Part shown: piece after piece, positions 8,580 to 37,782 of the stretch
How positions within the stretch are numbered: position 1 is the first letter of the stretch
How the letters are laid out: each line of letters opens with the position of its first letter
Assembly: GCF_055900595.2 (NCBI RefSeq)
Contig: NZ_CM148325.1
Length of the DNA: 64,000 bases
Reading direction: 5' to 3' (one strand)
Position numbers and translations under genes: made by a program
Notes under the pieces: generated by a model
What the model was told of the DNA's origin: nothing
What the model saw: the letters and a program-made list of their open reading frames with translations, nothing else
Database searches by the model: none

Positions 8580-8582
8580 TCT

Positions 8583-11500: not shown

Positions 11501-14500
11501 TGTAAGTCCACTGCGTACCGTTGGTGGTGAGCGTGGTCCAGGTCGCGCCGCCATCGAGGCTAATCTGCGCCACTTCGCCGCTGGCAAGCCCCGCCCCCAG
11601 CGAACCGGTCAGCGTGAGCGTGGTATCGCTGGTGATAAAGTCGGTGGCCGAACTCCCCGTATCGGTGCTGATGCTGGCGATGGTGAGCACCTGCGCCGGG
11701 TTAACGGTGTCAATCTGCGCCGACTGGCTGCCGGTTGCGCCAACGTTGCCCGCTAAATCAACCACCCGCACCTGCCAGGTGGTGGTGCCGTTGGTCAGCG
11801 TACGCCCGTCCACATATGTCCAGTTCAGACCGTCTGCGGCAACGGTCACGTTCACCCAGGTTGCGCCGTTGTCGGTACTGATTTGCGCGAACTCATTAGC
11901 GCCGAGCGCCGCGCCCAGCACGCCGCGCACGGTAAGCGTGGTGTCGCTGGTAATAAAATCGCTGCTGCTGGCTCCGGTGTCATCGCTGATACCGGTAATA
12001 GTGATGCTTTTCGCCGCTTCCGGGCTGATGGTGTCAACCACCACGTTTTGCGTCGCGGTCTGCCCGACATTCCCCGCCAGATCCACCACCCGCACCGTGT
12101 AATTCCATGTGCCGTCGGTGAGCGTGCGACCATCGGCATAGCTCCAGCTGGTGCCGATAACGGTTAAGGTGGCCCAGGTAACGCCACCATCAAGGCTGAT
12201 TTGCGCCCGTTCATCTGCCGCCAGCGCCGCGCCGAGCGTCCCGCGCACGGTCAACGTAGTGTCACGGGTCACAAAATCGCTGCTGCTTAACCCGGTGTCA
12301 TCGCTGATGCCCGCAATGACGATGGTTTTGCTCGCCAGCGGCGCGGTGGTATCCACGGTGACTATCTGGCTGGCGGTCGCGCCGATATTTCCGGCGGTGT
12401 CGATCACCCGTACCTGATAGTTGTAGTTACCGTCGGTCAGCGTGCGCCCGTCAAGATAAGTCCAGGTTAATCCATTTACCGCCAGATTCTGCCAGGTGGT
12501 GCCGCCATCGATACTGATTTGCGCGAACTCACCGGCAGAAAGTGCCGAGCCCAGCGTGCCGCTTACCGCAAGCGTCGTGTCGCTGGTGACAAAATCATTA
12601 GTAATCAGACCTGTATCGGTGGTGATCGCGCTAATGGCGATGGTTTTCACCGCGGGATCTGGCGCAGTAGTGTCGATCACCACATTCTGGCTATCAGTCG
12701 CCCCGACGTTGCCCGCCGCATCAATCACCCGCACCTGATAGAGATAGTTACCATCGGTCAGCGTGCGGCTGTCGTTATAGCGCCAGGTCGTGCCAGTAAC
12801 GGTAAGCGTGCTCCAGGTTACACCGCCGTCGATACTGATTTGCGCCGTCTCGTTACTGGCAAGCGCGGCGGTGAGTGAGCCGTTGACCACCACCGGGCTG
12901 ACGCTGGTGATAAAGTCGCTGGCGCTAAGGCCAGTGTCGGCTTGCAGGGAATCAATATTAATGCCCATCGCCGGGGCGCTGAGATCGACGGTAATGGTGT
13001 GATTGCTGCTACCGATGTTGCCAATGGCGTTGCTCACCGAAGCGTTAATCACATAGGCATTGCCGTCCGCCAGCGCGGTGACATCGGCGCTGCCGAGGGT
13101 GTAGCTCCAGCTACCACCGGTCTGCACCGTAGTGGTGTAGGTTTTACCGTTTAAGGTCAGAGTCAGCGTCTGCCCGACTGGGGCGGTGGTGGTGCCGCTG
13201 ATCACCAAAGACGCGCCGTGTTCCGCCGCGTTCACCACATCATCGCCCGCAAGGGTGTTAATGGTGACGGTGGGGACGTCGCCATTCAACGTCACGCCAC
13301 GGCTGGCGCTACCGGGGTTTCCGGCCTGATCGCTGACCGTCGCGCTGATGGTGTAGCTGCCGTCGCTTAATCCGGCAAACTGCTGCGCCGGAATAAACAC
13401 CGACCAGCTTCCGCCACTGCCGACCGTTGCGGTCCAGTTTTGTCCGTTAAAGGTGACGCTCACCGTCTGGCCCGCTTCGGCGGTGGTGGTGCCGCTGATG
13501 GTCTGCCCGGCAAGCTGCTCGGCGTTGTTGATAATATCGTCACCCGCCACCGTGGCGATGGTGACCGTTGGCGCAACGGTATCGACGGTCAGGGCGTGCG
13601 TGGTTTGACCGGGGTTACCGGCACGATCGTTCACGCTGGCGGTAATGGTCTGCGCACCCTGCCCGAGCGATGCCAGATCCGCCGCAGGCACGTTCAGCGC
13701 CCAAGTGCCATTGGCGGCAACCGTGGCGGTATAGGTTTTGCCGCCAAAGGTGACGGTGACCGTTTGCCCCACTTCCGCGCTGGTCGAGCCGTTAAGGGTT
13801 AACGGCTGCTGCTGTTCGGCGGCGTTGAGTCGATCGTCCGTCGAAACGGTGTTAATGCTGATAATCGGCGCGGTGAGATCCACCGCCACGCTGCGCGAGG
13901 CCGTGGCGCTGTTTCCGGCGCTGTCCTGCGCGGAGGCGCTAACCGTATAGCTGGTGCCATCCGCAAGCGCCGCAACGTCTGCCGCCGGCACGTTCACGCT
14001 CCAGCTCCCGTTGCTCTGAATGGTGGCGCTGTAGCCTTTGCCGTTAAGTAACACGGTCACCACCGTACCTGCGGCAAAGTTCGTTCCGGTGCCGCTCAGG
14101 GTCAGCGCACTGCCTGCTTCGGCGGCGTTAATCACGTCATCGCTGGCAACGGTGTTGATGCTGATTGCCACCGCCGTTAAATCGACGGTGAACGGATGGC
14201 TGACGCTGACCGGGTTTCCGGCGCTGCTCTGGCCTGTCACGTCAACGGTTAACGCCCCCGCAGGCCAGGCGCTGACGTTTGCCGCCGGAATGCCAACGCT
14301 CCAGCTTCCATCCGCCTGTACCGTGGTGGAATACGCCACACTGTTGATGGTAACCGTCAGCACAGCACCTGCATTCAGGCCGCTACTGCCGCCGGTGATC
14401 ACCAGCGCCTGACCATGCTCGATGCTGTTGACGATATCATCGCCCGCCACGGTATCCACCCGCAGCCCTGGCAGATTGGCATCAATGGTGATATCCCGCG

Positions 14501-17500
14501 TGCCGCTACCCGTATTGCCATTCGCGTTGGTAACCGAGGCGGTAATGGTCAAATCACCATTGCCCAACGCCTGGAGATCGGCTGCCGGAACGCTGACGCT
14601 CCAGCTTAAGTTGCCCTGTACCGTAGCGGTGTAAGTGTTACCGCCCAGCGTCACGGTAACTGTATCGCCAGCGGCGGCGCGGGTCACCCCCCCGCTGATG
14701 GTTTGATCGGCCCCGGCTTCGGCGGCGTTGATAATATCGTCGTCCGCCACGGTATTGATGGTGACGCCTGGCAGGCCGCTGTCGACCAGTAAATTCGCCT
14801 GGCTGCTGGCGGTGTTGCCTGCCGCACTGGTGGCGCTGGCGCTGACGGTATAGTTAGCCTGACCTAAGGCCGCCAGATCGCTCACCGGCACGGTTAAGGT
14901 CCAGTTGCCTGCTGCGTCGGTGGTAGCGCTGTAGTTATGACCGTTGAGCGTGACGGTAACCTGTGCGCCGGTCGCCAGCCCCGTACTGCTACCGCTGATG
15001 GTCAACGGCTGGCCTTTTTCATCGGCGTTCAGAACGTTATCGCTGCTGATGGCGTTAAAGGTAATGGTCGGCAGCCCGGTATTGACCGTCACCTGATGGC
15101 TGGCGTTGCCGCTGTTTCCGGCGGCGTCAGTGACGCTGGCGTTAATGGTCACCGTGCCGTTTGCCAGTGCCGAAACAACGCTTGCCGGGACGCCGACGCT
15201 CCAGTTGCCGCTGGCATCCAGCACCGTGGTGAAGGTATTTGTGCCGATAGTCACCGTCACGGTGTTACCGGTTGCCGCACCAGTGGCAGAGCCGCTGATA
15301 ATCTGCGCCTGGGCGTGTTCCGTCGCGTTGATCACATCATCACCCGCGACAGTGTTGATGGTGACGACCGGAACGGAAGTATCCACCGTCAGGTTGTGGT
15401 TAACCGAGGTCGGGTTTCCGGCCTTGTCGCTCACCGCCGCGCTGACGGTGTAGTTGCTGGCGGTCAGAGCGCTTAAGTCGGCTGGCGGTACGCTGATACT
15501 CCAGCTGCCGTCCGTTTGTACCGTGCCAGTATAGTTTGCGCCATTGAGCGTGACGGTCACCGTCTGCCCGGCTTCCGCCGTGCTGCTGCCGGTGATGGTC
15601 AGCGCCGCACCCGCTTCGGCGGCGTTAAGAATATCGTCGCCCGCAATGGTGTTAATGGTCACCGTTGGCGCGGTGGCATCGACGCTGTAAGCGTGGGTAG
15701 TGGTGGCACTGTTGCCGTTAACGTTGCTGACGCTGGCCTGCGCGCTGGCATCACCATCACGCAGGGCTGCCATATCCGCCGCCGGAACCGTGGTGCTCCA
15801 GGAACCATTCGCCGCGACACTTGCAGTATAGGTTTTACCGCCAAAGGTCACGGTGACCGTTTGCCCGGCCTCCACGCCAGAGGTGCTGCCGGAGAGCGTT
15901 AATGCCGCGCCTTTTTCAGCGGCGTTAATCACATCATCGGTGGTAATGGCGTTGATGCTGACCGCCACCGCCGAGAGATCGACAGTCACTGGATGCGTAA
16001 CGCTGACCGAGTTTCCGGCGGTAGTGCTGCCGCTCGCCGTAATCGTCACCGCCCCCGCAGGCCAGGCGCTGACATCCACCGCCGGAACGCCGACGCTCCA
16101 GGTGCCATCCGCCAGCACTGCCGCAACATAGGTTTGCCCGTTAATGGTCAGCGTGACATTGCTACCCACCGCCAGCCCAGAGCTGCTGCCGGTAATCACC
16201 AGCGCCTGACCGTGCTCGATAATGTTGACCACATCATCGCCCGCCACGGTATCGACCCGCAGACCGGGGAGATTCGCGTCTATGGTGATTTCGCGCGTGC
16301 CGTTACCGGTATTGCCTACGCTGTTCGTTACCGAAGCCGAAATGCTCAGCTCTCCGTTGCCCAACGCCTGTAACGCCGAAGCCGGAACATCGACACTCCA
16401 GCTTAAGTCTGCCTGTACCGTAGCGGTGTAAGTCGCCCCACCGAGCGTCACGGTCACCGTGTCGCCCGCCGCGGCCCTCGTGACCTGCCCGCTGATAGTT
16501 TGAGTTGCCCCCGCTTCGGCGGCGTTAATAATATCGTCCGTTGCCACAACGTTAATGGTGACGCCCGGTAGCGCGGTATTAACCTGCACGTTATGGCTGG
16601 CGGAACCGCTATTGCCATCAACATCGGTTGCGGCGGCAGTCACCGTATAAGTCGCTTCACCGAGCGTACCAACCGCAGACGCCGGAACAGTCACGCTCCA
16701 GTTCCCGGAAGCATCGGCAGTGGTGGTGTAATTTTGCCCGTTGAGCGTAACAGTTACCTGCGTGCCCGCAGGCTGGTTGCTGGTGCCGGAAATCGACAGA
16801 TCCGCGCCTTTCTCCGTGGCGTTGATGATGTCATCGACGGCGATGGTGTTAATGGCGAGTATCGGTGCACCGAGCGCCACGCTGACAGTGTGCGAGGCCG
16901 TGCCGCTGTTGCCTGCGGAGTCGGTAACCGTGGCGGTAATGGTCACATCGCCCTGGGCCAGCGCGGAAATCACGCTGGCAGGCACGCCGATGCTCCAGTT
17001 GCCGTTGGCGTCCAGCACGGTGGTGTAGGTGGTCGTGCCAATCGTCACGGAAACCGTGTTACCCGTCGTCGCGCCCGTTGCCGAGCCGCTGATAATCTGC
17101 GCCTGAGCATGTTCCGTGGCGTTAATGATGTCATCGCCTGCTACCGTGTTAATGGTGACGACCGGAGCGGCAAGATCCACCGTCAGGTTATGCGTCGCCG
17201 AGGTTGGGTTGCCCGCTTTGTCGCTGACCGCCGCGCTCACCGTATAGGGGCTGGCGGTAAGGTCGGCTAAATCGCCAGTTGGTACGCTGACGCTCCAGCT
17301 CCCGTCTGCCTGCACGTTGCCGCTGTAATTGATGCCGTTTAGCGTCACGGTCACTGTCTGCCCGGCTTCTGCGGTGCTGGTGCCGCTGATGGTCAGCGCC
17401 GATCCCGCTTCGGCGGCATTAAGAATATCGTCGCTGGCGATGGTGTTGATAGTAACGGAGGGCGCGGTGGCATCGACGCTATAAACATGCGTTGCCTGGG

Positions 17501-20500
17501 CGTTGTTACCCGCGACGTTGCTGACGCTGGCCTGGATGTTTGCTGCGCCATCCGGCAAGGTTGCGAGATCGGCTGCTGGGATCGTCAGCCCCCAGGTATT
17601 ATCCGCGGCAACCGTGGTGGTGTAGCTTTTGCCACCGAAAATAACGGTAATGGTCTGCCCCGCTTCCACGCCGGAGGTGGTGCCAGAAAGCTGCAAATCA
17701 GTGCCTTTTTCGGCGGCGTTTATCACATCGTCAGTGGAGAGTGTATTGATGGTAATCGCCACGGCAGCGAGATTGACCGTGACCGGATGGCTAATGCTGG
17801 TTGTGGTTCCGGCGGTATTAGTGCCAGAGACGGCAATATTGACCGTCCCCGTAGGCCAGTTAGCCACGTCCGCTGCCGGAACGCCGACGCTCCAGGTGCC
17901 ATCGGCGAGTACCGTTGCGCCGTAGGTGACGCTATTGATAACCACCGTCAACGCCGCGCCCGCCGCCAGTCCGGTACTACTGCCGGTGACCACCAGTGCC
18001 TGAGTGTACTCAATGCTGTTAATCACATCATCGCCTGCCACGGTATCAACCCGCAGACCTGGCAAGTTGGCATCTATCACGATGTCGTGCGTTGCGGTGC
18101 CGGTATTATTTGCGGAATTGGTCACCGAGGCGCTGATGGTCAGTTCACTGTTACCCAGCGCCTGCAAATCTGCCGCAGGCACGCTGACGCTCCAGCTTAA
18201 ATCTGGCTGCACGGTGGCAATGTATTGATTACCGCCGAGCGTGACAGTGACCGAATCTCCTGCTGCTGCCGTCCCCGTAACCTGTCCGCTGAGGGTCTGG
18301 TTAACGGCGATTTCAGCGGCGTTGATAATGTCATCGCCCGCCACGGTATTAATAATCACCCCAGGCAGGAGCGATTCGACATTCACCGTATGGGTGGTGC
18401 TGCCGTTGTTGCCCGCGCTGTCGGTGGCACTGGCGCTAATCTGGTATACCGCCTCGCCCAGTGCGCCGACCGCCGAAGCAGGCACGGTAACGCTCCAGTT
18501 GCCGGAGCCGTCGGTGGTGGCGCTGTACGCCAGGCCGTTCAACATCACGGTGACCGTAGTGCCTGCCGCCAGGCCGCTGGAGACGCCGCTGATGATCAGA
18601 TCCTGGGTTTTCTCGGTATTGTTAATGATGTCATCGCCGGAGACGGTGTTGATGGTCAGCGTCGGGCCGCTGAGATCAACGGTCACATCGTGAGTCGTGC
18701 TGTCGCTGTTGCCCGCGCGATCGCTCAGGCTGGCGGTGATGGTCTGGCTACCGGTTGCCAGTGCCGTGACATCCGCCGCCGGAATACCCACACTCCAGTT
18801 ACCGGAGGCGTCCAGCGTTGTGGTGTAGTTTTTACCGTTCAGATTAACCGTGACCACATCGCCCGCCGCCGCGCCCGTACTGGTGCCGCTCACCACCAGC
18901 GCCTGACCATGTTCGATGGCGTTGATAATGTCATCGCCCGCGACGGTATTAATGGTGAGATCCGGCGCGGTAACGTCCACCGCCAGTGCATGATCCGCGC
19001 TTGCCGGGTTGCCCGCTTTGTCGCTCACCGTGGCGGTCACGGTATAACTGCTGGCGGTTAATCCGCTTAAATCTGTCGCCGGAACGTTCACACTCCAGGT
19101 GCCATCGGCCTGGACGGTAGTCTGGTACGTGTTGTTATTGAGCGTGACAGTCAGCGTCTGCCCGGCCTGCGCCGTGGTGGTGCCGCTGATAGTTATCCCC
19201 GCGCCCGCTTCACTCACGTTGAGAATATCGTCGCTGGCGATGGTGTTGATGGTCACAAGCGGCGCGGTGGCATCGACGCTGTACGCGCGATCGGCCTGGG
19301 CGCTGTTGCCGTTAATGTTGCTGACACTCGCCTGCACGTTGCCCGCGCCGTCCGGCAACGCAGCGAGATCGGCAGGCGGCACATTCACCGTCCAGCTACC
19401 GTTGGCTTCCACAGTGGTGGTGTAATTTTTGCCGCCAAAGGTGACGGTCACCGTCTGCCCGGCTTCTACACCGCTGGTACTGCCGCTCACCACCAGCGTT
19501 TCGCCTTTTTCGACGGCATTGATCACATCATCGCCGGAGAGAGTGTTAATGGTTATGGCGACCGCCGCCAGATCGACGGTAACCGGATGGGTAATGGTGG
19601 AGGTTGTTCCGGCGCTGTTGGTGCCGCTTACCGTGATATCCACCGTACCCGCAGGCCAGTTGCTGACGTCTGCCGCCGGAACGCCGAGGTTCCATGTACC
19701 GTCAGCTAACACCGTGGCAGCGTAAGTGACGTTGTTAATCACGACCGTTAATGCCGTTCCTGCCGTCAGCCCGGTGCTGCTACCTGTTATCACCAGCGCC
19801 TGATTGTGCTCAATGCTGTTAATAACATCATCGCCCGCTACGGTATCGACCCGCAAACCAGGCAGATTGGCATCGATCGTAATATCGCGCGAGCCGCTGC
19901 CGCTGTTGCCCACGACGTTGGTGACCGAGGCGTTAACTGTCAGGTCGCCGTTACCAAGCGCCTGAATATCCGCCGCCGGAACGCTGACACTCCAGCTTAA
20001 ATTAGCCTGCACCGTAGCGGTGTAGGTGTTGCCGCCCAGCGTGACGGTGACCGTATCGCCCGCCGCCGCGCCCGTCACCTGCCCGCTGATGGTTTGCACA
20101 CTGCCCGCTTCGGCGGCATTAATAATGTCATCGGTTGCCACTGCGTTAATGGTAACGCCAGGTAAGGCGCTGTTGACCAGCACATTATGGCTGACGGAAT
20201 TACTGTTGCCTGCCGTGTCGGTAACGCTCGCCGTTACCGTGTAGTTGGCTTCACCCAACGCGCTAGCTGCCGAGGCTGGCACCGTGGCGCTCCAGTTGCC
20301 ACTGCTATCGGTGGTAGCGGTGTAATTTTGTCCGTTCAGCGTCACTGTAATGGTGGTGCCTGCGGGCTGATTACTGGTGCCAGTAATTTGCAGATCCGCG
20401 CCTTTTTCTGTGGCGTTAATCACATCATCGGTGGCGATAGTATTGATACCTATCGTTGGCGAGGTGAGATTCACGGTGACCGTGCGGCTGGCATCATCGC

Positions 20501-23500
20501 TGTTGCCTGCCGCATCGGTAATGGCCGCAGTGATGGTTTGCGGGCCGCTGCCCAGCGCAGTGACGTCTGCTGCCGGAACGCCGACGCTCCAGTTGCCGGA
20601 GGCGTCCAGCGTGGTGGTATAAGTTTTACTGTTTAACGTGATGGTGATGACATCGCCCGCTTCGCCGCCAGTGCTGGAACCGGAGATCACCAGCGCCTGT
20701 CCGTGTTCGGCGGCGTTAATGATGTCATCGCCGGAGACGGTGTTAATGGTTAAAACTGGCACGGTGAGATCCACCGCCAGGCCGTGAGTGGCGGTCGCCG
20801 GGTTACCCGCTTTGTCGCTTACCGAGGCGCTGACCGTGTACGGGCTGGCGGTCAGATTGCTGAGATCCGCCGTCGGCACGCTGACGCTCCAGCTACCGCC
20901 CGCCTGAACGGTGCCGATGTAAGCCACACCATTAAGCGTGACGGTTACCGTTTGCCCCGCTTCGGCGGTGCTGGTGCCGCTGATGGTTAACGGATTGCCC
21001 GCCTCAGCGGCGTTAAGAATATCGTCTGTGGCAATAGTGTTAATGGCAAGCGTCGGTGCCGTGGCGTCGACGCTGTAGGCGTGGGTTGCCGAAGCCGTGT
21101 TGCCGTTAATATTGCTGACACTGGCCTGTACCGTGGCGTCGCCGTCACGTAACGCGCTGAGATCGGCGGTGGGTAGAGTAGTTGTCCAGCTACCATCGCC
21201 CGCTACGGTAGCAATATAGGTTTTGCCGCCAAAGGTGACGGTGACGGTTTGCCCCGCTTCCACGCCGGAAGTGCTGCCGGAAAGGGTTAACTCTGCCCCT
21301 TTTTCAGCGGCATTAATCACATCGTCGCCGGAAACGGTGTTAATGGAGATCGCCACCGCCGCCAGATCGACGGTGACCGGATGGGTGATGGTGGAGGTTG
21401 TTCCGGCAGTGTTAGTGCCGCTTACCGTGATATCCACCGTCCCCGCAGGCCAGTTGCCCACGTCTGCCGCCGGAACGCCAACGCTCCATGTGCCATCGGC
21501 TAATACTGTCGCAGCGTAAGTGACCGTGTTAATCACCACTGTCAGCGCCGCGCCCGCCGCCAGCCCGCTGCTGCTACCGGTTATCACCAGTGCCTGAGCG
21601 TGCTCGATGCTGTTGACCACATCATCGCCCGCCACGGTATCGACGCGCAGACCCGGCAGGTTGGCGTCTATCACAATATCGCGCGAACCGCTGCCAGTAT
21701 TACCCACGCCGTTGGTTACCGAGGCATTAACTGTCAGTTCGCCATTACCGATAGCCTGAATATCCGCCGCCGGAACGTCCACGCTCCAGCTAAAATTGCC
21801 CTGCACGGTAGCGGTGTAGGTTTTCCCGCCAATCGCCACGGTAACCGTATCGCCCGCCGCCGCACCCGTCACCTGGCCGCTGATGGTCTGCGCCACGCCC
21901 GATTCCGCCGCGTTAATAATATCGTCGGTCGCCACCGGATTAATGGTGACACCCGGCAGCGCGGTATTCACCTGCACGTTATGGCTGGCGGAATTGCTGT
22001 TGCCCGCGCTGTCGGTGACGTTCGCCGTCACCGTGTAACTGGCGTCGCCCAGCGCACCGACGGCAGAGGCTGGCACCGTGGTGCTCCAGTTGCCTGCGGC
22101 GTCCGTCGTGGCGGAGTAATTTTGCCCGTTAAGCGTCACCGTAATTGTGGTGCCTGTTGGCTGATTACTGGTGCCGGAAATTTGCAGATCCGCGCCTTTT
22201 TCCGTGGCATTAATCACGTCATCGCTGGCAATGGGGTTGATGCCAATGGTCGGCGCGGTAAGGTTAACGGTGACCGTGTGCGTCTCGTTGTCGCTGTTGC
22301 CAGCCACATCGGTAACGGTCGCCGTCACGGTTTGCGGGCCGCTGCCCAGCGCAGAGACATCCGCAGCCGGAACGCCGACGCTCCAGTTTCCGGAGGCGTC
22401 CAGCGTGGTAGTGTAGGTTTTATTGTTTAGCGTGACGCTGACGATATCGCCCGCCTCCCCGCCAGTGCTGGAACCGGAAATCACCAGCGCCTGCCCGTGT
22501 TCGGCGGCGTTAATAATATCATCGCCCGCAATGGTGTTAATGGTCAGTACCGGAACGGTGAGATCCACCGCCAGATTATGCGTGGTGCTCGCCGGGTTGC
22601 CCGCTTTGTCATTGACCGTCGCCGTCAGGGTATGGCTGCCATCGGTCAATGCCTCAAGATCTGCCGCCGGAATAGTAATACTCCAGCTGCCGTCCGCCTG
22701 CACTGTTGCCTGATAGGTCTGCACGGTCGGGCTGTTAAGCGTTACCGTAACAATCTGCCCCGCTTCAGCGGTGGTGCTGCCGCTCACCGTCACGCCCGCA
22801 TCGGCTTCGCTGGCGTTGACGATATTGTCGCTGGCGACGGTATTGATAATGATGGTTGGCGCGCTGCTATCGACGCTGTAGTTATGCACCGCCGAGGCGC
22901 TATTGCCATTGATATTGCTGACGCTGGCCTGCGCGGAGGCGCTGCCCTCAGGTAATGCTGCCAGATCGGCGGCAGGAACGGTGGCAGTCCAGCTACCATC
23001 GCTCGCCACGCTGGCGGTGTAATTTTTCCCGCCAAAGTTGACGGTGACGGTTTGTCCTGGCTCTACATTAGTGGTGGTGCCGGAAAGAGTTAAATCAGCG
23101 CCTTTTTCTGCGGCGTTAATCACGTCGTCCGTGGCGATGGTGTTGATTGTGATCGCCGCCGGAGTGAGATCCACCGTTACCGGATGCGTAATGCTCACCG
23201 GATTTCCGGCGCTACTTTCCCCGGATACAGCAATAGACACTGTTCCCGCAGGCCAGGCGCTAACCTGCGCCGCCGTGACGCCCACGCTCCAGCTACCATC
23301 GACCTGCACCGCAGTGGTGTATTCCACATTATTAATCGTAACTGTAAGCGGGGTGCCTTCTGCCAGCCCCGAGCTGCTGCCGGTGACCACCAGCGCCTGC
23401 CCGTGTTCGATGATATTGACCACATCATCGCCCGCTACCGTATCGACCCGCAGACCGGGCAGATTGGCGTCGATGGTGATATCCCGCGTGCCGCTGCCGG

Positions 23501-26500
23501 TGTTGCCGTTTTGATTGGTGACCGAGGCGCTCACCGTTAAATCACCATTACCCAGCGCCTGAATATCCGCCGCCGGAACGCTCACGCTCCAGCTTAAACC
23601 GGCCTGCACGGTGGTGCTGTAAGTATTACCGCCCAGCGTAACGGTTACCGTGTCGCCAACGGCGGCTCCAGTCACCTGCCCGCTGATGGTTTGCGCAGCC
23701 CCCGCTTCGGCGGCGTTAATAATATCGTCGGTTGCCACCGGGTTAATAGTCACGCCGGGCAGCGCGCTGTCGACCAGCACGTTATGGCTGGCGGTGGCGC
23801 TGTTGCCGATATCGCTGGTCACCGCCGCCGTTACCGTATAGTTGGCCTGGCCCAGTGCGGTTACCGCCGATGCCGGAACGGTGACGCTCCAGTTACCGGA
23901 GGCGTCGGTCGTGGTGGTGTAATTTTGCCCGTTCAGCGTCACTGTGATGGCGGTATTAACAGGCTGATCGCTGGTGCCGGTAATTTGAACATCGGCCCCT
24001 TTTTCGCTGGCGTTAATCACATCATCGCCCGCAATGGTGTTAATGCCAATCACCGGCGCGGCGGTATCAACCGTGACGGTCAGTGACTGGCTACCCGTAT
24101 TTCCGGCGCGATCAGTCACTGAAACGTTGATCGGATAACTGCCGTCCACCAGTCCGCTGACAACGGAGGCCGGAACGCCCAGACTCCAGTTGCCGGAAGC
24201 ATCCACCACCGTGGTGTAATCCACATCATTCAGCGTAACGGTGACAATATCGCCCGCCTGCGCGCCGGTGACCGTGCCGCTGATGATTTGCGCCTGGGTA
24301 TGTTCCGGCGTGTTAATGACGTTATCGGTTGCCACCGGATTAATGGTCACCACCGGCGGCGTGGCATCGACCAGCGCCACCCGTGAGACGCTGGTCGGAT
24401 TACCCGCGACATCGTTCACGCTCGCGGTCACCGTGGCGTTGCCGTCAGCCAGTGCGCCAACGTTGGCGGCGGGAACGGTCACGCTCCAGGAGCCAACTGA
24501 CTGCACGACGCCCTGATAGGTCTGCCCATTAAGCGTGACGGTCACCGTCTGCCCCGGCTGAGCGTCGGTGGTGCCAGTGATTTGCAGATCCTGACCACTT
24601 TCGGCGGCGTTAATGATGTTATCAGCCGTCAGCGAGTCGATGCTTAAAGCCGGAGCCAGGCTGTCGACGGTAATGGTGCGGGAGGTGTCGCCTGTGTTAC
24701 CGCTGATATTAGTAACGGTCGCAGTGATTTCCGTCGCACCGTCTGCCTGGCTACTCACCGCGCTGGCGGGAACGGTCAGGCTCCAGCCGCCACCTGCCTG
24801 AACGGTAGTGGTAAAGGTCTGCCCGGCGAATTTCACTACTACGGTTTGCCCGGTTTCCACCAGCTGCGTGGTACCGGTCAGCGTCAATGGCGCGCCTTTT
24901 TCTGCGGCATTGATAATGTCATCGCCGGAGACGGTATTGATGGTAATAAGCACCGCGCCCGGATTAACCTCCACGTTGCGATCGATAGTAACCGGGTTCC
25001 CGGCGGGGTCCGTTGCGCTGGCATTAACCACTATCGTACCCGGCGTCAGTGCCTGTAGATCTGCCGCAGGCACGCCTACCTGCCAGTTGCCGTTGCTGTC
25101 GGTCACCCCCTGGTAGGTGTTGCCGCCGAGCAAAACAGTGACCACTCTTCCGGCGGACAAATTAGTACTGCTACCGGTGATAATCAGGTTTTGCTGCTGC
25201 TCAACGGCATTGATCACATCATCGCCCGCGATGGTGTCAATGCGCAGCCCCGGCAGCCCGGCGCTGATGGTGATATCAAGCGCACTGCTACCCGTATTGC
25301 CATGTACGGTAGTAACCGAAGCATTAATGGTTAACGCACCATCGCCCAGCGCCTGTAAATCTGCCGCCGGAACGTTCACGCTCCAGGTGAGATTGCTGCC
25401 CACCGTCGCCGTGTAAGTATTGCCGCCCAGTTCAATAGTGACCGTATCGCCCTGCGCGGCGCCCACGACGACGCCACTCAGGGTTTGATCTGCTCCCGCT
25501 TCGGCGTTGTTGACAATGTTGTCGCCCGCAAAGGTGTTGATGATCACCTGCGGCAGCACCGTATCGACCAGCAAATTGCTCTGCGCGGTGCCAGTGTTGC
25601 CGGTCACATCGGTGGCGCTGGCAGTGACGGTGTAATTGGTGTTCGCAAGATTAACAACATCACTCACCGGAACGCTCAGCGACCAGACGCCGCCGCTGAC
25701 CTGAGCGCTATACGTGACATTATTCAACGTCACGCTAACTGTACCGCCATCGGGCAAATTGCTGGTGCCGCTTAACGTTAGCGGCTGCTGAGACTCCAAC
25801 GCATTCAGTACGTTATCTCCGCTGATAGCATCTATCGCGACTTGCGGCGCGACGCCCGCCAGGGTGATGTTATGAGTCGCTGTACCGGTATTTCCGGCGG
25901 CATCGGTCACCGTGACGATAATATCGTTAGGGCCACGCGCTAGAGTGCGAGTTACCGCCGGATCAAGCGCCACATTCCAGCTACCGTCTGCCTGCACCAC
26001 GCCGGACAGAACTGTGGCGCCTAACTTGACGGTGACCGTGTCGCCAGGGGAAGCCCCACTGACCCGCCCGGAAATAATCTGCGCCACAATCTGTTCGGCG
26101 GTATTAAGAATATCGTCACCCGCAACGGTGTTAACGCTGACCACTGGCGCACCGGTGTCTACTGTGAAATTTACGCTGTTGCTGGTGGTGTTTCCTGCCC
26201 GGTCGCTGACGCTGGCATTTATGGCGTAGTCGCCATCTGCCAGCGCCTGCACTTCTGCGGCAGGCAGCGTCACTTGCCAGGTTCCGTCACTACCGACAGT
26301 TGCTGTGTGGCTTTTCCCGTTAACGGTCAGTGTTACGGTTTGCCCGGCTTCTGCGTTCGAAGTGCCGCTCACTACCAGCGAGGCATTATGTTCTGAGGCG
26401 CTGACAATGTTGTCCTGAGCGATGGTGTTGATTGCAAGTGTTGGCGGCTGGGTATCGACCGTTAGCAGCTGCGCTCCGGTGACCGTATTGCCCGTGGCAT

Positions 26501-27560
26501 CTTTCCCACTGACCAGCACCGCCTGATTGCCTTCGCCTAATGTCTGGGCGTCGGCGGTCGGCACCTGCACGCTCCACGCGCCGTTAGCGCCTACGCTGGT
26601 GGTGTAAGTTTTGCCGTTTAGCGTGACGGTGAGTTCCGTTCCCTGTGCCAGATGGCTACTGGTGCCAGAAAGGGTAAACCCGGCGGCCTGTTCGCTGGCG
26701 TTAATGATGTTATCGCCTGCGGTGGTGGCGAGCTGTACGGCGGCCTGACTATTGTCGATGGTTAACGTTATCGACCCGGCGTTGGTAATGGTGCTGCCGA
26801 CGATTTGCACCACTGACCAGGTATGTTCGCCCGCGCTTTGTGTGGGCAAATCGACGCTCCAGCGTCCATCGCTACCGACCTGGGTACTGGCGATGGTGTC
26901 ACCATTGCTGTCTTTAATCTGGATGGTCGCCCCCGCCTGTCCGCTGCCGCTAAAGGTTGGCGTAGTGTCATCGGTGATATCGTTGGCGGAAAGAATACCG
27001 CGTTGATCGCCCTGATTATCGGTTACCAAAAACGATGGAGTGGCATTGCCGGGTTCGGCTGGCGGAGGGTTGTTAACCACTTCAGTTTTTGAGTCATCAT
27101 CACCACCGCTTGCCAGTAAAGCGCCAAGCGCGCCACCACCTACCGCGGCACCCGCTAACCATCCCCACGGGAAGGCACTGGTCTGAGCGACGGTATCAAG
27201 ATACGGCGCAATGCTTTCAATTGCGGTAGTCTGAGCGGTCAGCTCCACGGGCGCTAATCCACCCGCCGCGGTATCGGCAAAGGTGACATGAGTCAGCTGT
27301 TGCCCATCGGCAAACACCAGTTCGGATTGCTCGCTGGTATTTGCCGCTTGCAGGAAATAACCATTACAGCGGATCACCGTGCCGTCCTGCATATAAATCA
27401 GCAGATCGTTTCCATCGCGCACATAACGCGCAACGGCAGAGGCCTGAGCATGAACCTGCACCACGGAGGGCTCATAAATGACAACCGTAACGTCGCCAGG
27501 ATTAATCAGCGTTTGTTTGACGGATGTTTTTCGCGAAATAACATCAATAATCAGGCTCAT
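8583..27560 (-). CDS. giant T1SS-secreted adhesin (6,325 aa): LapA-like N-terminal module, ~45-50 Ig-like repeats, FG-GAP-like calcium-binding repeats, RTX-type GG repeats and C-terminal secretion signal
   Basis: single 18,978-nt ORF; ~100-aa repeats each with the ...INT(V/I)AGDD(I/V)INAAE... core; DFDGDGDMD / DWDHDGLMD / DYDWDGAVD motifs; GGNDTLNIGNGGHDTL near C-terminus; flanked by T1SS genes. Confidence 0.9.
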   Translation of the reverse strand: MSLIIDVISRKTSVKQTLINPGDVTVVIYEPSVVQVHAQASAVARYVRDGNDLLIYMQDGTVIRCNGYFLQAANTSEQSELVFADGQQLTHVTFADTAAGGLAPVELTAQTTAIESIAPYLDTVAQTSAFPWGWLAGAAVGGGALGALLASGGDDDSKTEVVNNPPPAEPGNATPSFLVTDNQGDQRGILSANDITDDTTPTFSGSGQAGATIQIKDSNGDTIASTQVGSDGRWSVDLPTQSAGEHTWSVVQIVGSTITNAGSITLTIDNSQAAVQLATTAGDNIINASEQAAGFTLSGTSSHLAQGTELTVTLNGKTYTTSVGANGAWSVQVPTADAQTLGEGNQAVLVSGKDATGNTVTGAQLLTVDTQPPTLAINTIAQDNIVSASEHNASLVVSGTSNAEAGQTVTLTVNGKSHTATVGSDGTWQVTLPAAEVQALADGDYAINASVSDRAGNTTSNSVNFTVDTGAPVVSVNTVAGDDILNTAEQIVAQIISGRVSGASPGDTVTVKLGATVLSGVVQADGSWNVALDPAVTRTLARGPNDIIVTVTDAAGNTGTATHNITLAGVAPQVAIDAISGDNVLNALESQQPLTLSGTSNLPDGGTVSVTLNNVTYSAQVSGGVWSLSVPVSDVVNLANTNYTVTASATDVTGNTGTAQSNLLVDTVLPQVIINTFAGDNIVNNAEAGADQTLSGVVVGAAQGDTVTIELGGNTYTATVGSNLTWSVNVPAADLQALGDGALTINASVTTVHGNTGSSALDITISAGLPGLRIDTIAGDDVINAVEQQQNLIITGSSTNLSAGRVVTVLLGGNTYQGVTDSNGNWQVGVPAADLQALTPGTIVVNASATDPAGNPVTIDRNVEVNPGAVLITINTVSGDDIINAAEKGAPLTLTGTTQLVETGQTVVVKFAGQTFTTTVQAGGGWSLTVPASAVSSQADGATEITATVTNISGNTGDTSRTITVDSLAPALSIDSLTADNIINAAESGQDLQITGTTDAQPGQTVTVTLNGQTYQGVVQSVGSWSVTVPAANVGALADGNATVTASVNDVAGNPTSVSRVALVDATPPVVTINPVATDNVINTPEHTQAQIISGTVTGAQAGDIVTVTLNDVDYTTVVDASGNWSLGVPASVVSGLVDGSYPINVSVTDRAGNTGSQSLTVTVDTAAPVIGINTIAGDDVINASEKGADVQITGTSDQPVNTAITVTLNGQNYTTTTDASGNWSVTVPASAVTALGQANYTVTAAVTSDIGNSATASHNVLVDSALPGVTINPVATDDIINAAEAGAAQTISGQVTGAAVGDTVTVTLGGNTYSTTVQAGLSWSVSVPAADIQALGNGDLTVSASVTNQNGNTGSGTRDITIDANLPGLRVDTVAGDDVVNIIEHGQALVVTGSSSGLAEGTPLTVTINNVEYTTAVQVDGSWSVGVTAAQVSAWPAGTVSIAVSGESSAGNPVSITHPVTVDLTPAAITINTIATDDVINAAEKGADLTLSGTTTNVEPGQTVTVNFGGKNYTASVASDGSWTATVPAADLAALPEGSASAQASVSNINGNSASAVHNYSVDSSAPTIIINTVASDNIVNASEADAGVTVSGSTTAEAGQIVTVTLNSPTVQTYQATVQADGSWSITIPAADLEALTDGSHTLTATVNDKAGNPASTTHNLAVDLTVPVLTINTIAGDDIINAAEHGQALVISGSSTGGEAGDIVSVTLNNKTYTTTLDASGNWSVGVPAADVSALGSGPQTVTATVTDVAGNSDNETHTVTVNLTAPTIGINPIASDDVINATEKGADLQISGTSNQPTGTTITVTLNGQNYSATTDAAGNWSTTVPASAVGALGDASYTVTANVTDSAGNSNSASHNVQVNTALPGVTINPVATDDIINAAESGVAQTISGQVTGAAAGDTVTVAIGGKTYTATVQGNFSWSVDVPAADIQAIGNGELTVNASVTNGVGNTGSGSRDIVIDANLPGLRVDTVAGDDVVNSIEHAQALVITGSSSGLAAGAALTVVINTVTYAATVLADGTWSVGVPAADVGNWPAGTVDITVSGTNTAGTTSTITHPVTVDLAAVAISINTVSGDDVINAAEKGAELTLSGSTSGVEAGQTVTVTFGGKTYIATVAGDGSWTTTLPTADLSALRDGDATVQASVSNINGNTASATHAYSVDATAPTLAINTIATDDILNAAEAGNPLTISGTSTAEAGQTVTVTLNGVAYIGTVQAGGSWSVSVPTADLSNLTASPYTVSASVSDKAGNPATATHGLAVDLTVPVLTINTVSGDDIINAAEHGQALVISGSSTGGEAGDVITITLNSKTYTTTLDASGNWSVGVPAADVTALGSGPQTITAAITDAAGNSDDASRTVTVNLTSPTIGINTIATDDVINATEKGADLQITGTSNQPAGTTITVTLNGQNYTATTDSSGNWSATVPASAASALGEANYTVTASVTDTAGNSNSVSHNVLVNSALPGVTINAVATDDIINAAEAGSVQTISGQVTGAAAGDTVTVTLGGNTYTATVQANLSWSVSVPAADIQALGNGDLTVNASVTNVVGNSGSGSRDITIDANLPGLRVDTVAGDDVINSIEHNQALVITGSSTGLTAGTALTVVINNVTYAATVLADGTWNLGVPAADVSNWPAGTVDITVSGTNSAGTTSTITHPVTVDLAAVAITINTLSGDDVINAVEKGETLVVSGSTSGVEAGQTVTVTFGGKNYTTTVEANGSWTVNVPPADLAALPDGAGNVQASVSNINGNSAQADRAYSVDATAPLVTINTIASDDILNVSEAGAGITISGTTTAQAGQTLTVTLNNNTYQTTVQADGTWSVNVPATDLSGLTASSYTVTATVSDKAGNPASADHALAVDVTAPDLTINTVAGDDIINAIEHGQALVVSGTSTGAAAGDVVTVNLNGKNYTTTLDASGNWSVGIPAADVTALATGSQTITASLSDRAGNSDSTTHDVTVDLSGPTLTINTVSGDDIINNTEKTQDLIISGVSSGLAAGTTVTVMLNGLAYSATTDGSGNWSVTVPASAVGALGEAVYQISASATDSAGNNGSTTHTVNVESLLPGVIINTVAGDDIINAAEIAVNQTLSGQVTGTAAAGDSVTVTLGGNQYIATVQPDLSWSVSVPAADLQALGNSELTISASVTNSANNTGTATHDIVIDANLPGLRVDTVAGDDVINSIEYTQALVVTGSSTGLAAGAALTVVINSVTYGATVLADGTWSVGVPAADVANWPTGTVNIAVSGTNTAGTTTSISHPVTVNLAAVAITINTLSTDDVINAAEKGTDLQLSGTTSGVEAGQTITVIFGGKSYTTTVAADNTWGLTIPAADLATLPDGAANIQASVSNVAGNNAQATHVYSVDATAPSVTINTIASDDILNAAEAGSALTISGTSTAEAGQTVTVTLNGINYSGNVQADGSWSVSVPTGDLADLTASPYTVSAAVSDKAGNPTSATHNLTVDLAAPVVTINTVAGDDIINATEHAQAQIISGSATGATTGNTVSVTIGTTTYTTVLDANGNWSIGVPASVISALAQGDVTITATVTDSAGNSGTASHTVSVALGAPILAINTIAVDDIINATEKGADLSISGTSNQPAGTQVTVTLNGQNYTTTADASGNWSVTVPASAVGTLGEATYTVTAAATDVDGNSGSASHNVQVNTALPGVTINVVATDDIINAAEAGATQTISGQVTRAAAGDTVTVTLGGATYTATVQADLSWSVDVPASALQALGNGELSISASVTNSVGNTGNGTREITIDANLPGLRVDTVAGDDVVNIIEHGQALVITGSSSGLAVGSNVTLTINGQTYVAAVLADGTWSVGVPAVDVSAWPAGAVTITASGSTTAGNSVSVTHPVTVDLSAVAVSINAITTDDVINAAEKGAALTLSGSTSGVEAGQTVTVTFGGKTYTASVAANGSWSTTVPAADMAALRDGDASAQASVSNVNGNSATTTHAYSVDATAPTVTINTIAGDDILNAAEAGAALTITGSSTAEAGQTVTVTLNGANYTGTVQTDGSWSISVPPADLSALTASNYTVSAAVSDKAGNPTSVNHNLTVDTSVPVVTINTVAGDDVINATEHAQAQIISGSATGAATGNTVTVTIGTNTFTTVLDASGNWSVGVPASVVSALANGTVTINASVTDAAGNSGNASHQVTVNTGLPTITFNAISSDNVLNADEKGQPLTISGSSTGLATGAQVTVTLNGHNYSATTDAAGNWTLTVPVSDLAALGQANYTVSASATSAAGNTASSQANLLVDSGLPGVTINTVADDDIINAAEAGADQTISGGVTRAAAGDTVTVTLGGNTYTATVQGNLSWSVSVPAADLQALGNGDLTITASVTNANGNTGSGTRDITIDANLPGLRVDTVAGDDIVNSIEHGQALVITGGSSGLNAGAVLTVTINSVAYSTTVQADGSWSVGIPAANVSAWPAGALTVDVTGQSSAGNPVSVSHPFTVDLTAVAISINTVASDDVINAAEAGSALTLSGTGTNFAAGTVVTVLLNGKGYSATIQSNGSWSVNVPAADVAALADGTSYTVSASAQDSAGNSATASRSVAVDLTAPIISINTVSTDDRLNAAEQQQPLTLNGSTSAEVGQTVTVTFGGKTYTATVAANGTWALNVPAADLASLGQGAQTITASVNDRAGNPGQTTHALTVDTVAPTVTIATVAGDDIINNAEQLAGQTISGTTTAEAGQTVSVTFNGQNWTATVGSGGSWSVFIPAQQFAGLSDGSYTISATVSDQAGNPGSASRGVTLNGDVPTVTINTLAGDDVVNAAEHGASLVISGTTTAPVGQTLTLTLNGKTYTTTVQTGGSWSYTLGSADVTALADGNAYVINASVSNAIGNIGSSNHTITVDLSAPAMGINIDSLQADTGLSASDFITSVSPVVVNGSLTAALASNETAQISIDGGVTWSTLTVTGTTWRYNDSRTLTDGNYLYQVRVIDAAGNVGATDSQNVVIDTTAPDPAVKTIAISAITTDTGLITNDFVTSDTTLAVSGTLGSALSAGEFAQISIDGGTTWQNLAVNGLTWTYLDGRTLTDGNYNYQVRVIDTAGNIGATASQIVTVDTTAPLASKTIVIAGISDDTGLSSSDFVTRDTTLTVRGTLGAALAADERAQISLDGGVTWATLTVIGTSWSYADGRTLTDGTWNYTVRVVDLAGNVGQTATQNVVVDTISPEAAKSITITGISDDTGASSSDFITSDTTLTVRGVLGAALGANEFAQISTDNGATWVNVTVAADGLNWTYVDGRTLTNGTTTWQVRVVDLAGNVGATGSQSAQIDTVNPAQVLTIASISTDTGSSATDFITSDTTLTLTGSLGAGLASGEVAQISLDGGATWTTLTTNGTQWTYTDSRTLTDGSYVYQVRVLDLAGNTGPVVSKTVVVDTINPTATPTIVSYTDDVGQRQGTFSNSQATDDTTPLLNGVLSAPLASGEVVYLYRNGLLLGAVTMVGALNWTYSDSGLVSGAYTYSARVVDLAGNITSSSDFVLTVDTSIPTTLAQITNQTTRDTTPIISGVLTAALASGQYVEVVINGKTYTSQPGGAVVVDPAHNTWYVQLPDTDALAASATAYNVTAQVKSSAGNGNTANVSTGTVTVNAAIDYTPTWTTTSKSTAWGLTYGLDNHGMWTVLANQQIMQSTDPLTWSKTALTLVQSGNNYATSSIADYNRNGTGDLFITRDDYGTGYINGFTNNGDGTFSSAIQVNVGTLTWYGSIVAFDKEGDGYLDFWIGDAGGPDSNTFLWNNAGTLTGNSTTANNGGSATVGGAVTGYLSLNEGSGVDLNNDGRIDLVQHTFNLNNNFTLSSLISQGNGTFVWGQNTVNTFLSSPGSGGNSTSVSMTWADFDGDGDMDLFLPASQGRANYGSLLFNTNGVLGSPVAVGATATTYASQFSLAVDWDHDGLMDIARIAQTGQSYLYTNVSNASNWTQSALGGSQSGTTSGVAAMDYDWDGAVDVLVTKQSGSVFLIRNTNTVSYGTSLHLRITDPNGINVYYGNTVKLYNSAGVLVATQIINPQSGMGVNDTSALVNFYGLNAGETYNAVLIKSTGTTASNIDQTVNTSWGGLQATDATHAYDLSAEAGTASNNGKFVGTGYNDTFFATAGTDTYDGSGGWVYSSGTGTWLANGGMDVVDFRLSTVGVTANLSVTTAQATGFNTSTFTNIEGISGSNFNDTLTGSSGDNQLEGRGGNDTLNIGNGGHDTLLYKLLNASDAAGGNGSDVVNGFTVGTWEGTADTDRIDIRELLQGSGYTGNGKASYVNGVATLDAQAGNIGDFVKVTQSGSDTIVQIDRDGTGGGFATTNMVTLTGVHTDLATLLANHQLMVV

Positions 27561-27668: not shown

Positions 27669-29024
27669 TTATTTTAAGTCGGGTAAGTCGTTGTATAAGC
27701 CCTGTTTAATTCCCGCTAATGGAATAAGGTTATTCACCGCAGCGGCATAATTTACGGCGGCGACCCAGCCATCATAATTGGCATTTATTTCAGCCGATTG
27801 CGCCTGAAAAACATCTTGCTCGACGGTTAATAGATCATTCAGGCTTCGGTTACCCAATTTATATTCATTTTGATAAACATCCCGCGTTCTGTGCGCACTT
27901 TCGGATTGCGCTAAACCGGCCTCTTCACGTCCCCGTGCCCCAGTCCAGTTGGCATACGCCACCGACGCCCGTTGCATAACATCTAATTTCGCCTGCTCAA
28001 CCTGCGAGGCAGAGATTTTTTGTTGCCCTTCGGCCTGTTGCACCTGGGCTGAAACCGCGCCGCCCTGATACAACGGCGCGTTGACGTTCAGTTGTAACTG
28101 GTCATCCCAGTACGAGCGGTCGCTGGTCTGGTAGCGCGTTTTGCCGCCCTGAATACTGAGCGTCGGCCAGTATTGCGATTTGGTTTTTTCCACACCGTAC
28201 TGAGCAGACTGACGTAAGTTTTCTGCCGCCAGAACCAGCGGTATGGACTGGTAATCAATATTTTTTAGCGACACTGGCTGCTCGGCTAATTCAGCAGGTG
28301 GCGCGGCTATCCTCTCCGGCTGTACACCAGTGAGCACCGCCAGTTGCGCTTTGGCGCTTGCCATTTGCGCCTGGTATTGCTCCAGCGTCGAGCGCATTGC
28401 CGCTATACGCGTCTGTGCCTGTAATTCATCGGATGATGAGTTAAGCCCGGCGTTGGCGCGCAGTGCCGCCATGTTGTAGACATTTTCCAGAGAGTGAATA
28501 TTACGCTGCGCAGCGTCGCACAACGCCTGATATCGGCTCACTTCCATATAGGTCGTCGCCGTTTTTTCGGCTACGTCAGTTAAGGTTGCCATCAGTTTAA
28601 AGCGGTAGCTGTCACGAGCGGCGGTTTGTAGTTTGATATCGTTATCTGTTTTACCGAAGTCATACACCAGCTGCGTCAGGGTTATGCCATAAGAGACGTT
28701 GTTATCCAGCCTGCCGCTGGAGTCCGTTTGCCGGGACGGCCCCGCGTTGCCGGTTAATCCAACGTGTGGATACCAGGCACTTTTGGCTTCATCGATTTGC
28801 GCTTCGCCAATACCTATCTGCGCCGCCTGTTGAGTGACGTCGGGATTTCGCGCAAAGGCGCGTAATATACTTTCCTGTAAAGATAATCGGGCAACTGGCG
28901 TTACCGCTGGGGCGTTCGCCCATTGTGGCAGCGGTGCAGCAATTGTAGCTTCTCCCATCACCATAAAACTTATTAAAAAAATAAGTCCATTATTTTTACG
29001 GTTTTTAAACTGGAATCGCGCCAT
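27669..29024 (-). CDS. TolC-family outer membrane channel of the type I secretion system
   Basis: 451 aa with signal peptide and two repeated coiled-coil/beta halves typical of outer membrane efflux proteins; first gene of the OMP-adhesin-ABC-MFP cluster. Confidence 0.85.
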   Translation of the reverse strand: MARFQFKNRKNNGLIFLISFMVMGEATIAAPLPQWANAPAVTPVARLSLQESILRAFARNPDVTQQAAQIGIGEAQIDEAKSAWYPHVGLTGNAGPSRQTDSSGRLDNNVSYGITLTQLVYDFGKTDNDIKLQTAARDSYRFKLMATLTDVAEKTATTYMEVSRYQALCDAAQRNIHSLENVYNMAALRANAGLNSSSDELQAQTRIAAMRSTLEQYQAQMASAKAQLAVLTGVQPERIAAPPAELAEQPVSLKNIDYQSIPLVLAAENLRQSAQYGVEKTKSQYWPTLSIQGGKTRYQTSDRSYWDDQLQLNVNAPLYQGGAVSAQVQQAEGQQKISASQVEQAKLDVMQRASVAYANWTGARGREEAGLAQSESAHRTRDVYQNEYKLGNRSLNDLLTVEQDVFQAQSAEINANYDGWVAAVNYAAAVNNLIPLAGIKQGLYNDLPDLK

Positions 29025-32882: not shown

Positions 32883-32951
32883 AAGAAGACCCTCCAACAG
32901 TCCATTCTCCATCTTGAAAACAGATAGAGAAAACGTATTCCTTATAAAGAG

Positions 32952-33251: not shown

Positions 33252-33345
33252 ATTTACGAGTACTCCATATAGTTACGCAAAAACAACATTCCTAGCCTAA
33301 AACGGCAAAACACCGTCAAAGGCCGATTAGGCTAAGCAAGCCTCA

Positions 33346-33993: not shown

Positions 33994-34023
33994 TCACCAC
34001 TGCAAATAACAAGAGCCAACAAC

Positions 34024-34547: not shown

Positions 34548-34590
34548 AGAAAAGTCGGCTTAATAAGCCCTGAGCCAGTCTTAATAAGAC

Positions 34591-37779: not shown

Positions 37780-37782
37780 GCG

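Follow-up and report, generated by a model that had tools for sequence, protein, structure and literature searches.

The stalk of the Escherichia coli O-island 28 RTX adhesin as a cycle of six diverged domain subtypes, with length changes probably mostly by whole-domain deletion at short identities

The DNA analysed here, hereafter the window, is a 64,000-nucleotide stretch of contig NZ_CM148325.1 (NCBI RefSeq assembly GCF_055900595.2). Its minus strand carries, at positions 8583-27560, a giant adhesin gene consisting of a single uninterrupted open reading frame (ORF) of 6325 amino acids (aa). It encodes a type I-secreted protein, the RTX adhesin of E. coli O-island 28 (OI-28); the gene is named siiEA or z0609/z0615, and its product contains a long array of immunoglobulin-like (Ig-like) domains. 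These domains follow one another in a fixed cycle of six subtypes. We consider it highly probable that the array is the stalk of the adhesin, that it descends from an ancient and now diverged six-domain unit, and that its length changes mostly through deletions of whole domains joined at short stretches of identity.

Iterated searches of the 6325-aa protein with a domain hidden Markov model (HMM) identified 54 Ig-like domains. About 47 of them, each of about 100 aa, make up an array of "Ca_tandemer" extender domains at residues 179-4864 (12969-27026, minus strand, as are all features of the protein given below), matched by the domain HMM, NCBIfam model NF033510 (Ca_tandemer), the Pfam family Big_13 and the structure PDB 4P99. 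Model NF033510 scores 548 bits over six domains, with six matches per unit. A matrix comparing 46 domains with one another gives a mean identity of 0.65 at a lag of 6 domains, 0.62 at 12, 0.60 at 18 and 0.57 at 24, as compared with 0.43-0.45 at all other lags. When the order of domains was shuffled 20000 times, the lag-6 mean was 0.459 +/- 0.013 with a maximum of 0.52, and no shuffle reached the observed value of 0.647. Identity between subtypes is about 43%, copies of the same subtype are 55-90% identical, and neighbouring domains are 38-50% identical. A three-domain sub-period, hinted at by slightly raised values at lags 3 and 9, was dropped after the 6x6 subtype matrix revealed no consistent pairing of subtype c with c+3.

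The DNA gives the same period. Repeat families in the gene are spaced 1794-1803 nucleotides (nt) apart, and the marker motif LPGLR[IV]DT[IV]AGDD occurs seven times at spacings of 598-601 aa, six times exactly as IDANLPGLRVDTVAGDD and once as a variant. The period was read from these repeat families together with the domain identity matrix; Tandem Repeats Finder, for which the longest period tested was 500 nt, reported nothing in the adhesin gene.

The array is made up of six units that are 58-78% identical in protein sequence, preceded by a degenerate N-terminal unit and followed by a tail of four domains. The degenerate unit, U0 (residues 273-869, 24954-26744), has the same subtype order and 45-51% aa identity to the others. 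U1 (residues 870-1467, 598 aa, 23160-24953) is 58-65% identical to the remaining units in protein and 63-66% in DNA. The closest pair is formed by U2 (residues 1468-2068, 601 aa, 21357-23159) and U3 (residues 2069-2666, 598 aa, 19563-21356), at 78% identity in both protein and DNA; U3 was delimited from the unit comparison and from its matches to Ca_tandemer, 4P99 and Pfam Big_13. Unit comparison also delimits U4 (residues 2667-3266, 600 aa, 17763-19562), U5 (residues 3267-3864, 598 aa, 15969-17762) and U6 (residues 3865-4463, 599 aa, 14172-15968). The last four domains of about 100 aa, at residues 4464-4864 (12969-14171), were placed by the domain HMM and the matrix, and the first of them is a hybrid domain discussed below. 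An earlier note on this window, made from the sequence alone, had proposed a block of six distinct subtypes rather than a simple tandem array, and the clean period of six, beyond anything produced by shuffling, bears this out. Its estimate of about seven recurrences is a fair description of six units, a degenerate unit and a partial tail with seven marker motifs, and the interval it gave, 12860-26700, takes in the whole Ig-like array, although the well-conserved units U1-U6 occupy only 14172-24953.

The units are far from identical. Between any two of them DNA identity is 63-78%, third codon positions agree at 46-60%, and the longest exact DNA match is 34 nt, with no exact match above 34-36 nt. 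Synonymous divergence (dS, by the Nei-Gojobori method) runs from 0.79, for U2 and U3, to 1.28, and the ratio of nonsynonymous to synonymous divergence (dN/dS) from 0.17 to 0.27. By these measures the units are old duplicates held under purifying selection, and the synonymous sites between them are close to saturation.

The same organization is found in other genera. The homologue in Enterobacter hormaechei, 52% identical in the C-terminal region, has a lag-6 identity of 0.62 vs 0.41, and for each of its first 31 domains the best E. coli match falls in the subtype that a 0-1-2-3-4-5 cycle without breaks predicts. The same period and order occur in Pseudocitrobacter faecalis, Cedecea neteri, E. 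cloacae, Enterobacter sp. Ag1 and an Enterobacter metagenome-assembled genome (MAG), the order failing only in isolated places towards the C-terminus of some arrays. Across genera, identity averages 0.59 for domains of the same subtype and 0.42 for domains of different subtypes. The orthologues from Enterobacter, Cedecea and Pseudocitrobacter thus carry these six subtypes in an identical cycle, and the six-domain unit is therefore ancient. Domains of E. hormaechei and E. cloacae match their positional E. coli counterparts at the array ends. Some interior copies resemble others of their own species more than those of another species, reaching 87-90% identity (D18 and D24 in the window, 90%; E15 and E27 in Enterobacter, 87%), so block duplication or gene conversion evidently continued after the genera split.

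Genes cut off by contig ends (a Burkholderiaceae MAG and Ensifer) and a short version of 1397 aa in Pseudomonas were left out of the periodicity comparison; the Acinetobacter and other loci returned by the genome scan lack this type of extender. Protein homologues of the C-terminal region were all of 1629 aa or less, and that search therefore supplied no full-length relatives. As a separate observation, the orthologue of P. faecalis DSM 27453 (1-14029 of the extracted region) is collinear domain for domain with that of E. coli N96 at 83-95% aa identity, with much lower identities, 50-78%, for the versions from Enterobacter and Cedecea. This closeness suggests a recent transfer of the locus between genera.

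Within E. coli, alleles differ in length by whole domains. We compared 15 alleles at the domain level, that of the window and those of 14 other E. coli genomes, out of 958 locus-bearing complete genomes, each spelled out as its sequence of subtypes. The lengths come from annotated regions, a whole-gene megablast alignment being fragmented into many places. They are 18975, 18978 (window), 19584, 20469, 20478, 20748, 20775, 20778 and 21669/21670 nt, and the number of extender domains runs from 46 to 55, with differences of 1, 3, 4, 6 or 9 domains. Strain N96 has a perfect cycle of 55 domains. In the commonest E. coli type, three domains are missing close to the N-terminus, and further lineages lack one domain (O157:H7 Sakai; O145 RM9154), three (ETEC6333), four (CUWW06) or six (ECSC054 and strain U1). 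Several length variants are common to independent complete genomes and thus are real alleles rather than assembly noise; ECSC054 and strain U1 share one protein accession, and the alleles of Z0117EC0005, AST85 and E400634 differ from one another by only 2-3 nt.

All five junctions that could be resolved lie within the first 60 nt or so of a domain, in DNA encoding ...INT[VI]A[GS]DD[VI][IL]NAAE.... The window has lost nine domains at an identity of 15 nt (ATTAACGCCGCCGAA), Sakai one domain at 14 nt (GGCGATGACATTAT), and CUWW06 four domains at about 14 nt; O145 RM9154 has lost one, with approximate junction limits. ECSC054 and strain U1 lack six domains, 1800 nt, relative to the otherwise near-identical allele of CFSAN061763, with 29 nt of identity at the junction; this junction was found by exact prefix and suffix extension, since BLAST ran through out-of-register repeats. 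It is the only event in the register of the super-repeat. This concentration of junctions at domain starts matches what the use of microhomology would predict, for exact in-register matches of at least 14 nt between domains fall in the first 60 nt of the domain in 114 of 230 cases in the window and 171 of 359 in N96.

The explanation we favour is that the array forms the extender stalk of the OI-28 giant RTX adhesin, exported by the T1SS (type I secretion system) encoded on both sides of the gene. The stalk is a chain of Ig-like domains of the family represented by the RII repeat of the Marinomonas primoryensis ice-binding adhesin (MpIBP), arranged in a fixed cycle of six diverged subtypes. 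Its six-domain unit would have arisen by ancient block duplication, before the forms of the gene now found in Escherichia, Enterobacter, Cedecea and Pseudocitrobacter separated, and would afterwards have been subject to purifying selection plus occasional block duplication or gene conversion in the array interior. Present-day length variation in E. coli would come mostly from in-frame deletions of whole domains that join conserved domain-start DNA, by replication slippage or short-homology recombination. Since nearly any pair of domains, of whatever subtypes, shares 14-29 nt of exact identity in the domain-start stretch, such deletions would not be limited to multiples of six. The allele of the window is intact and would carry a private nine-domain deletion of the same type. 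The family to which the domains belong, together with published work on MpIBP and OI-28, suggests a rod, stiffened by Ca2+, that holds the C-terminal FG-GAP and Big_13 region away from the cell, the number of domains setting how far the tip projects. Ca2+ is probably bound between domains, as the name of the Ca_tandemer family and the conserved acidic motif imply. Neighbouring domains in tandem arrays tend to be dissimilar, and block duplication of six unlike domains would lengthen the rod without putting like domains side by side.

Several points weigh against this account. Because about half of all microhomologies of at least 14 nt lie at domain starts anyway, finding five of five junctions there is only a modest enrichment (roughly p = 0.03). 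The direction of change, deletion as opposed to insertion, is taken from the majority state and from close relatives, and the mechanism may be either RecA-dependent or slippage. The domain-level sample of 15 alleles is a small part of the 958, junction limits are approximate for pairs that are about 95% identical (CUWW06, O145), and the window deletion has a single witness. Seven of the 15 sampled alleles are pseudogenes, interrupted by stops or frameshifts, so some deletions may represent neutral decay rather than tuning of stalk length.

The strongest alternative concerns the meaning of the cycle rather than its existence: the function of the stalk might require the order of six subtypes, as a super-period in its structure, and the order would then be more than a frozen record of block duplication. 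We regard this as a tentative possibility, distinctly less probable than its converse. The cycle is the same across genera despite saturated synonymous sites between units, dN/dS is low, subtypes remain distinct across genera, and neighbours are held at 38-50% identity while domains six apart stay alike, all as a functional order would have it. Yet intact alleles with broken order exist, namely that of the window (nine domains lost), that of CUWW06 (four lost) and the common E. coli type (three missing near the N-terminus); the order would be kept automatically if arrays change only by rare deletions; and the related stalk of MpIBP works with identical repeats (PDB 4P99). A functional super-period could act through subtype-specific interfaces between neighbours, affecting stiffness or twist, or through the separation of like domains, which could avoid misfolding during vectorial, Ca2+-driven folding outside the cell. 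A little more doubtful still is the broader proposal that selection has kept the six-subtype cycle across the Enterobacterales for longer than synonymous sites can record, with the domain-start motif doubling as a trimming site.

A second alternative is that the array in the window is mis-assembled, the nine-domain gap being an artefact and the true gene being about 21.7 kb long as in its nearest relatives. Compared with the alleles of Z0117EC0005, AST85 and E400634, the window allele is 99.9% identical on both sides of a single gap, in which 2691 nt, exactly nine domains, are missing between the 42nd and 43rd domains of about 100 aa. The junction, at 14118-14132, is the 15-nt microhomology noted above, which encodes I-N-A-A-E on the coding strand, and lies inside the hybrid domain at 13869-14171, where the cyclic subtype order jumps (...0|4-5-0-1). 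None of the 958 complete E. coli genomes with the locus contains this junction, nor does the species-representative genome collection. Eight complete E. coli genomes share with the window a 100% identical 5' end (956 nt) of the adhesin gene, a segment only 80-90% identical in 794 of the 958, and all eight carry the two halves of the junction apart; furthermore, draft assemblies of relatives often end inside the adhesin gene. The absence of the junction elsewhere, the separate halves and the truncated drafts would fit an artefact.

Against it, 15 nt is shorter than any usual assembler k-mer and too short to mislead an assembler, the junction is exactly in frame, the hybrid domain has a normal HMM score (107.7 bits), and the anatomy is that of the four other deletions, which come from independent complete genomes. 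The window allele is otherwise distinct as well. The three relatives share a CAG-to-TAG nonsense change at codon 2813 plus a frameshift in a G run of eight or ten, and the window is intact at both sites, with seven consecutive G at 14687-14693 (coding strand; gene nt 12868-12874); the G run itself is specific to the lineage, as N96 has GGGGTGG at that position. Lacking both the TAG and the G8 frameshift, and differing at 13 other sites, the window allele represents a separate lineage and not a copy of its relatives. Mis-assembly is therefore improbable, and the nine-domain deletion is in all likelihood real. Allelic divergence within E. coli is in general high for a chromosomal gene, with dS of 0.12 between the window and N96 alleles.

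The weakest alternative, that long near-identical 1.8-kb repeats change in number by ordinary homologous recombination in six-domain steps and collapse in assemblies, can draw on the loss of exactly one unit in ECSC054 and strain U1 relative to CFSAN061763, and on interior same-subtype pairs such as D18/D24 and E15/E27 that are much more alike than neighbours, but it is very unlikely, given units with dS of about 1 and no exact match beyond 34-36 nt, four of five events out of register, an in-register event that itself used 29 nt within the generic domain-start motif, and identical alleles recurring in independent complete genomes. Here the picture departs from the earlier note, which had described 1.8-kb repeats of high identity. 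It had expected gene length to vary among strains by recombination, and nine lengths from 18975 to 21669 nt were indeed found among 15 alleles, differing by whole domains; the cause it gave is absent from an array whose units are 22-37% diverged. Steps of one 1.8-kb unit describe a single junction, that of ECSC054 and strain U1, and the other four remove 1, 1, 4 and 9 domains at about 14-15 nt. Assembly collapse, which it had considered a hazard, is unlikely because the units are only 63-78% identical in DNA and their longest exact match is 34 nt. Its caution about copy number still stands in one respect: the array has diverged enough to assemble, and the copy number in the window is nonetheless unusual, nine domains present in all nearest relatives being missing.

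Outside the stalk, the protein has the layout of a T1SS-exported giant RTX adhesin of the BapA/LapA type, with a BapA-like prefix, a long Ig-like extender array, an RTX C-terminus and T1SS genes as neighbours. The N-terminal region, residues 1-229 (26874-27560), matches NCBIfam models NF047714 (adhesin_SiiEA, residues 1-229, 515 bits, cut-off 425) and NF033677 (biofilm_BapA_N, residues 5-69, 71.5 bits, cut-off 35), and by analogy with LapA and MpIBP is presumed to act as an outer-membrane retention module. After the prefix domain, the sequence TAAG occurs at residues 97-100 (27261-27272); in LapA-type adhesins this motif is cleaved by LapG. The array is followed by five domains of about 106 aa, Big_13-type but of a different kind from the extenders, at residues 4865-5400 (11361-12968), with a single-domain periodicity of 318-321 nt (repeat families D12 and D13), and beyond these by two weaker Ig-like domains called by the iterated HMM. 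FG-GAP_3 repeats (Pfam PF13517, three matches, E = 3e-8 to 3e-7) at residues 5668-5959, approximately (9684-10559), probably form a beta-propeller, a candidate ligand-binding region. RTX nonapeptide repeats (PF00353, E = 2e-4) and a type I secretion C-terminal target domain (TIGR03661, T1SS_VCA0849, 34 bits, cut-off 17.6) occupy residues 6090-6325, approximately (8586-9293).

Assignment of the gene to OI-28 follows from the intact ORF, the NF047714 match, synteny, and the RefSeq annotation as siiEA or BapA-related adhesin. Genes for all three T1SS components adjoin it on the same strand: a TolC-family channel at 27669-29024 (TIGR01844, 407 bits, and annotation in related genomes), an LssB-type ABC permease/ATPase (z0634, hlyB28) at 6417-8579 (TIGR03375, 837 bits, cut-off 693), and an HlyD-family periplasmic adaptor (z0635, hlyD28) at 5245-6420 (TIGR01843, 328 bits). 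The locus is found in 958 of 5426 complete E. coli genomes, chromosomal in every case. Its position, flanked by cueR and ybaT-glsA, and its gene order are those seen in relatives, where the adhesin is usually annotated "siiEA, BapA-related adhesin SiiEA".

Niu et al. (2025, PMC12758282) list z0608, z0609 (rtxA28), z0615 (rtxB28), z0634 and z0635 as members of the OI-28 T1SS/RTX system, and report that epithelial adherence and early colonisation by enterohaemorrhagic E. coli (EHEC) O157:H7 depend on the secretion genes and on "two RTX proteins", z0609 and z0615. The window shares with that system the locus, the flanking genes from cueR to ybaT, the three secretion genes and a SiiEA family match above cut-off. 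It differs in that the O157:H7 gene is split into two ORFs, treated in PMC12758282 as two RTX proteins, while the window has one intact ORF of 6325 aa. In O157:H7 Sakai, z0609 and z0615 (ECs_0542 and ECs_0541; 1581-22049 of the extracted region) are adjoining pieces of the same reading frame, split by a stop at codon 1462, and thus are one interrupted gene. In the sections consulted and in a term search across its full text, neither a six-domain period nor polymorphism in domain number was seen to be mentioned. By analogy with the role reported there for the O157:H7 locus, the window allele may mediate adhesion at the surface.

Some observations concern the surroundings. E. coli CM2 lacks the whole adhesin and secretion island between cueR and ybaT, with a short gene remnant left (1231-3055 of the extracted region). 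Just beyond the HlyD gene, a 407-aa ORF at 3617-4840 on the plus strand has no Pfam or NCBIfam match and is absent from most other strains examined; it abuts cueR in O145 RM9154. The gene for glutaminase A, glsA (30657-31589), has an apparent in-frame premature stop at 31104-31106 that divides it into ORFs of 161 and 125 aa, and is intact in CM2 (933 nt). Next to it lies a P2-like prophage or satellite, at about 31869-40272 and beyond, which includes an integrase (31869-32912) and, at 37783-40272, an ORF resembling a replication endonuclease. This element is 98-99.6% identical to sequences in a few chicken-derived E. coli genomes, and CM2, though without the adhesin island, has the same prophage.

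The closest structural parallel is MpIBP, also a T1SS-exported giant adhesin with a stalk of these domains. Its RII region (PDB 4P99, the MpAFP_RII tetra-tandemer) belongs to the same domain family (E = 1.8e-57) and shares with the window domains a motif at each domain start, ...NAITSDDVINASEA... (...DDVINA[AS]E...). The MpIBP stalk consists of about 120 virtually identical copies of one domain, and there assembly collapse is a real problem; the stalk described here instead alternates six subtypes that are about 43% identical, with same-subtype copies at 55-90%. A more distant parallel, by analogy only and in an unrelated protein from a different kingdom, is titin, whose Ig-type domains form super-repeats of several domains in a set order, with greater similarity between like positions than between neighbours and with periods that match the partner filament.

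Periscope Proteins (Whelan et al. 2021, PMC8201768) likewise are surface rods of repeated domains whose number differs between strains. They are defined by long, highly identical repeats, with DNA identity proposed to drive recombination (PMC8201768). Here that degree of DNA identity is lacking (63-78% between units, and about 43% aa identity between neighbours), and variation uses 14-29 nt. Serial arrays of several Ig-like module types, with strain polymorphism and with end domains less alike than interior ones, are known from modules A-D of Acinetobacter baumannii Bap (De Gregorio et al. 2015, PMC4647330) and from the paired and more complex extender patterns described in RTX adhesins by Hansen et al. 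(bioRxiv 10.1101/2025.09.30.679566); the present array differs in its period of six, its strict order over as many as 55 domains, its dS of about 1 and its cross-genus order. The OI-28 locus and its function are thus already known, as are multi-type extender patterns and strain polymorphism in other RTX adhesins. In the literature searched, nothing was found for this family on the strict six-subtype grammar, on its sharing by several genera or on whole-domain deletions that use the domain-start motif.

Early colonisation of the gut by EHEC O157:H7 is reported to depend on this adhesin. A six-domain grammar, an array of 46-55 domains, and the interruption of about half of the sampled alleles bear on the annotation, typing and engineering of this locus, and on the reading of experiments with truncated constructs, the O157:H7 allele having been studied as two separate proteins. 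For quality control of assemblies, the array is diverged enough to assemble reliably, unlike stalks of identical repeats. For the biology of these adhesins, variation in the number of stalk repeats would not require near-identical repeats: contrary to common assumption, a conserved motif of 14-15 nt in each domain may be enough.

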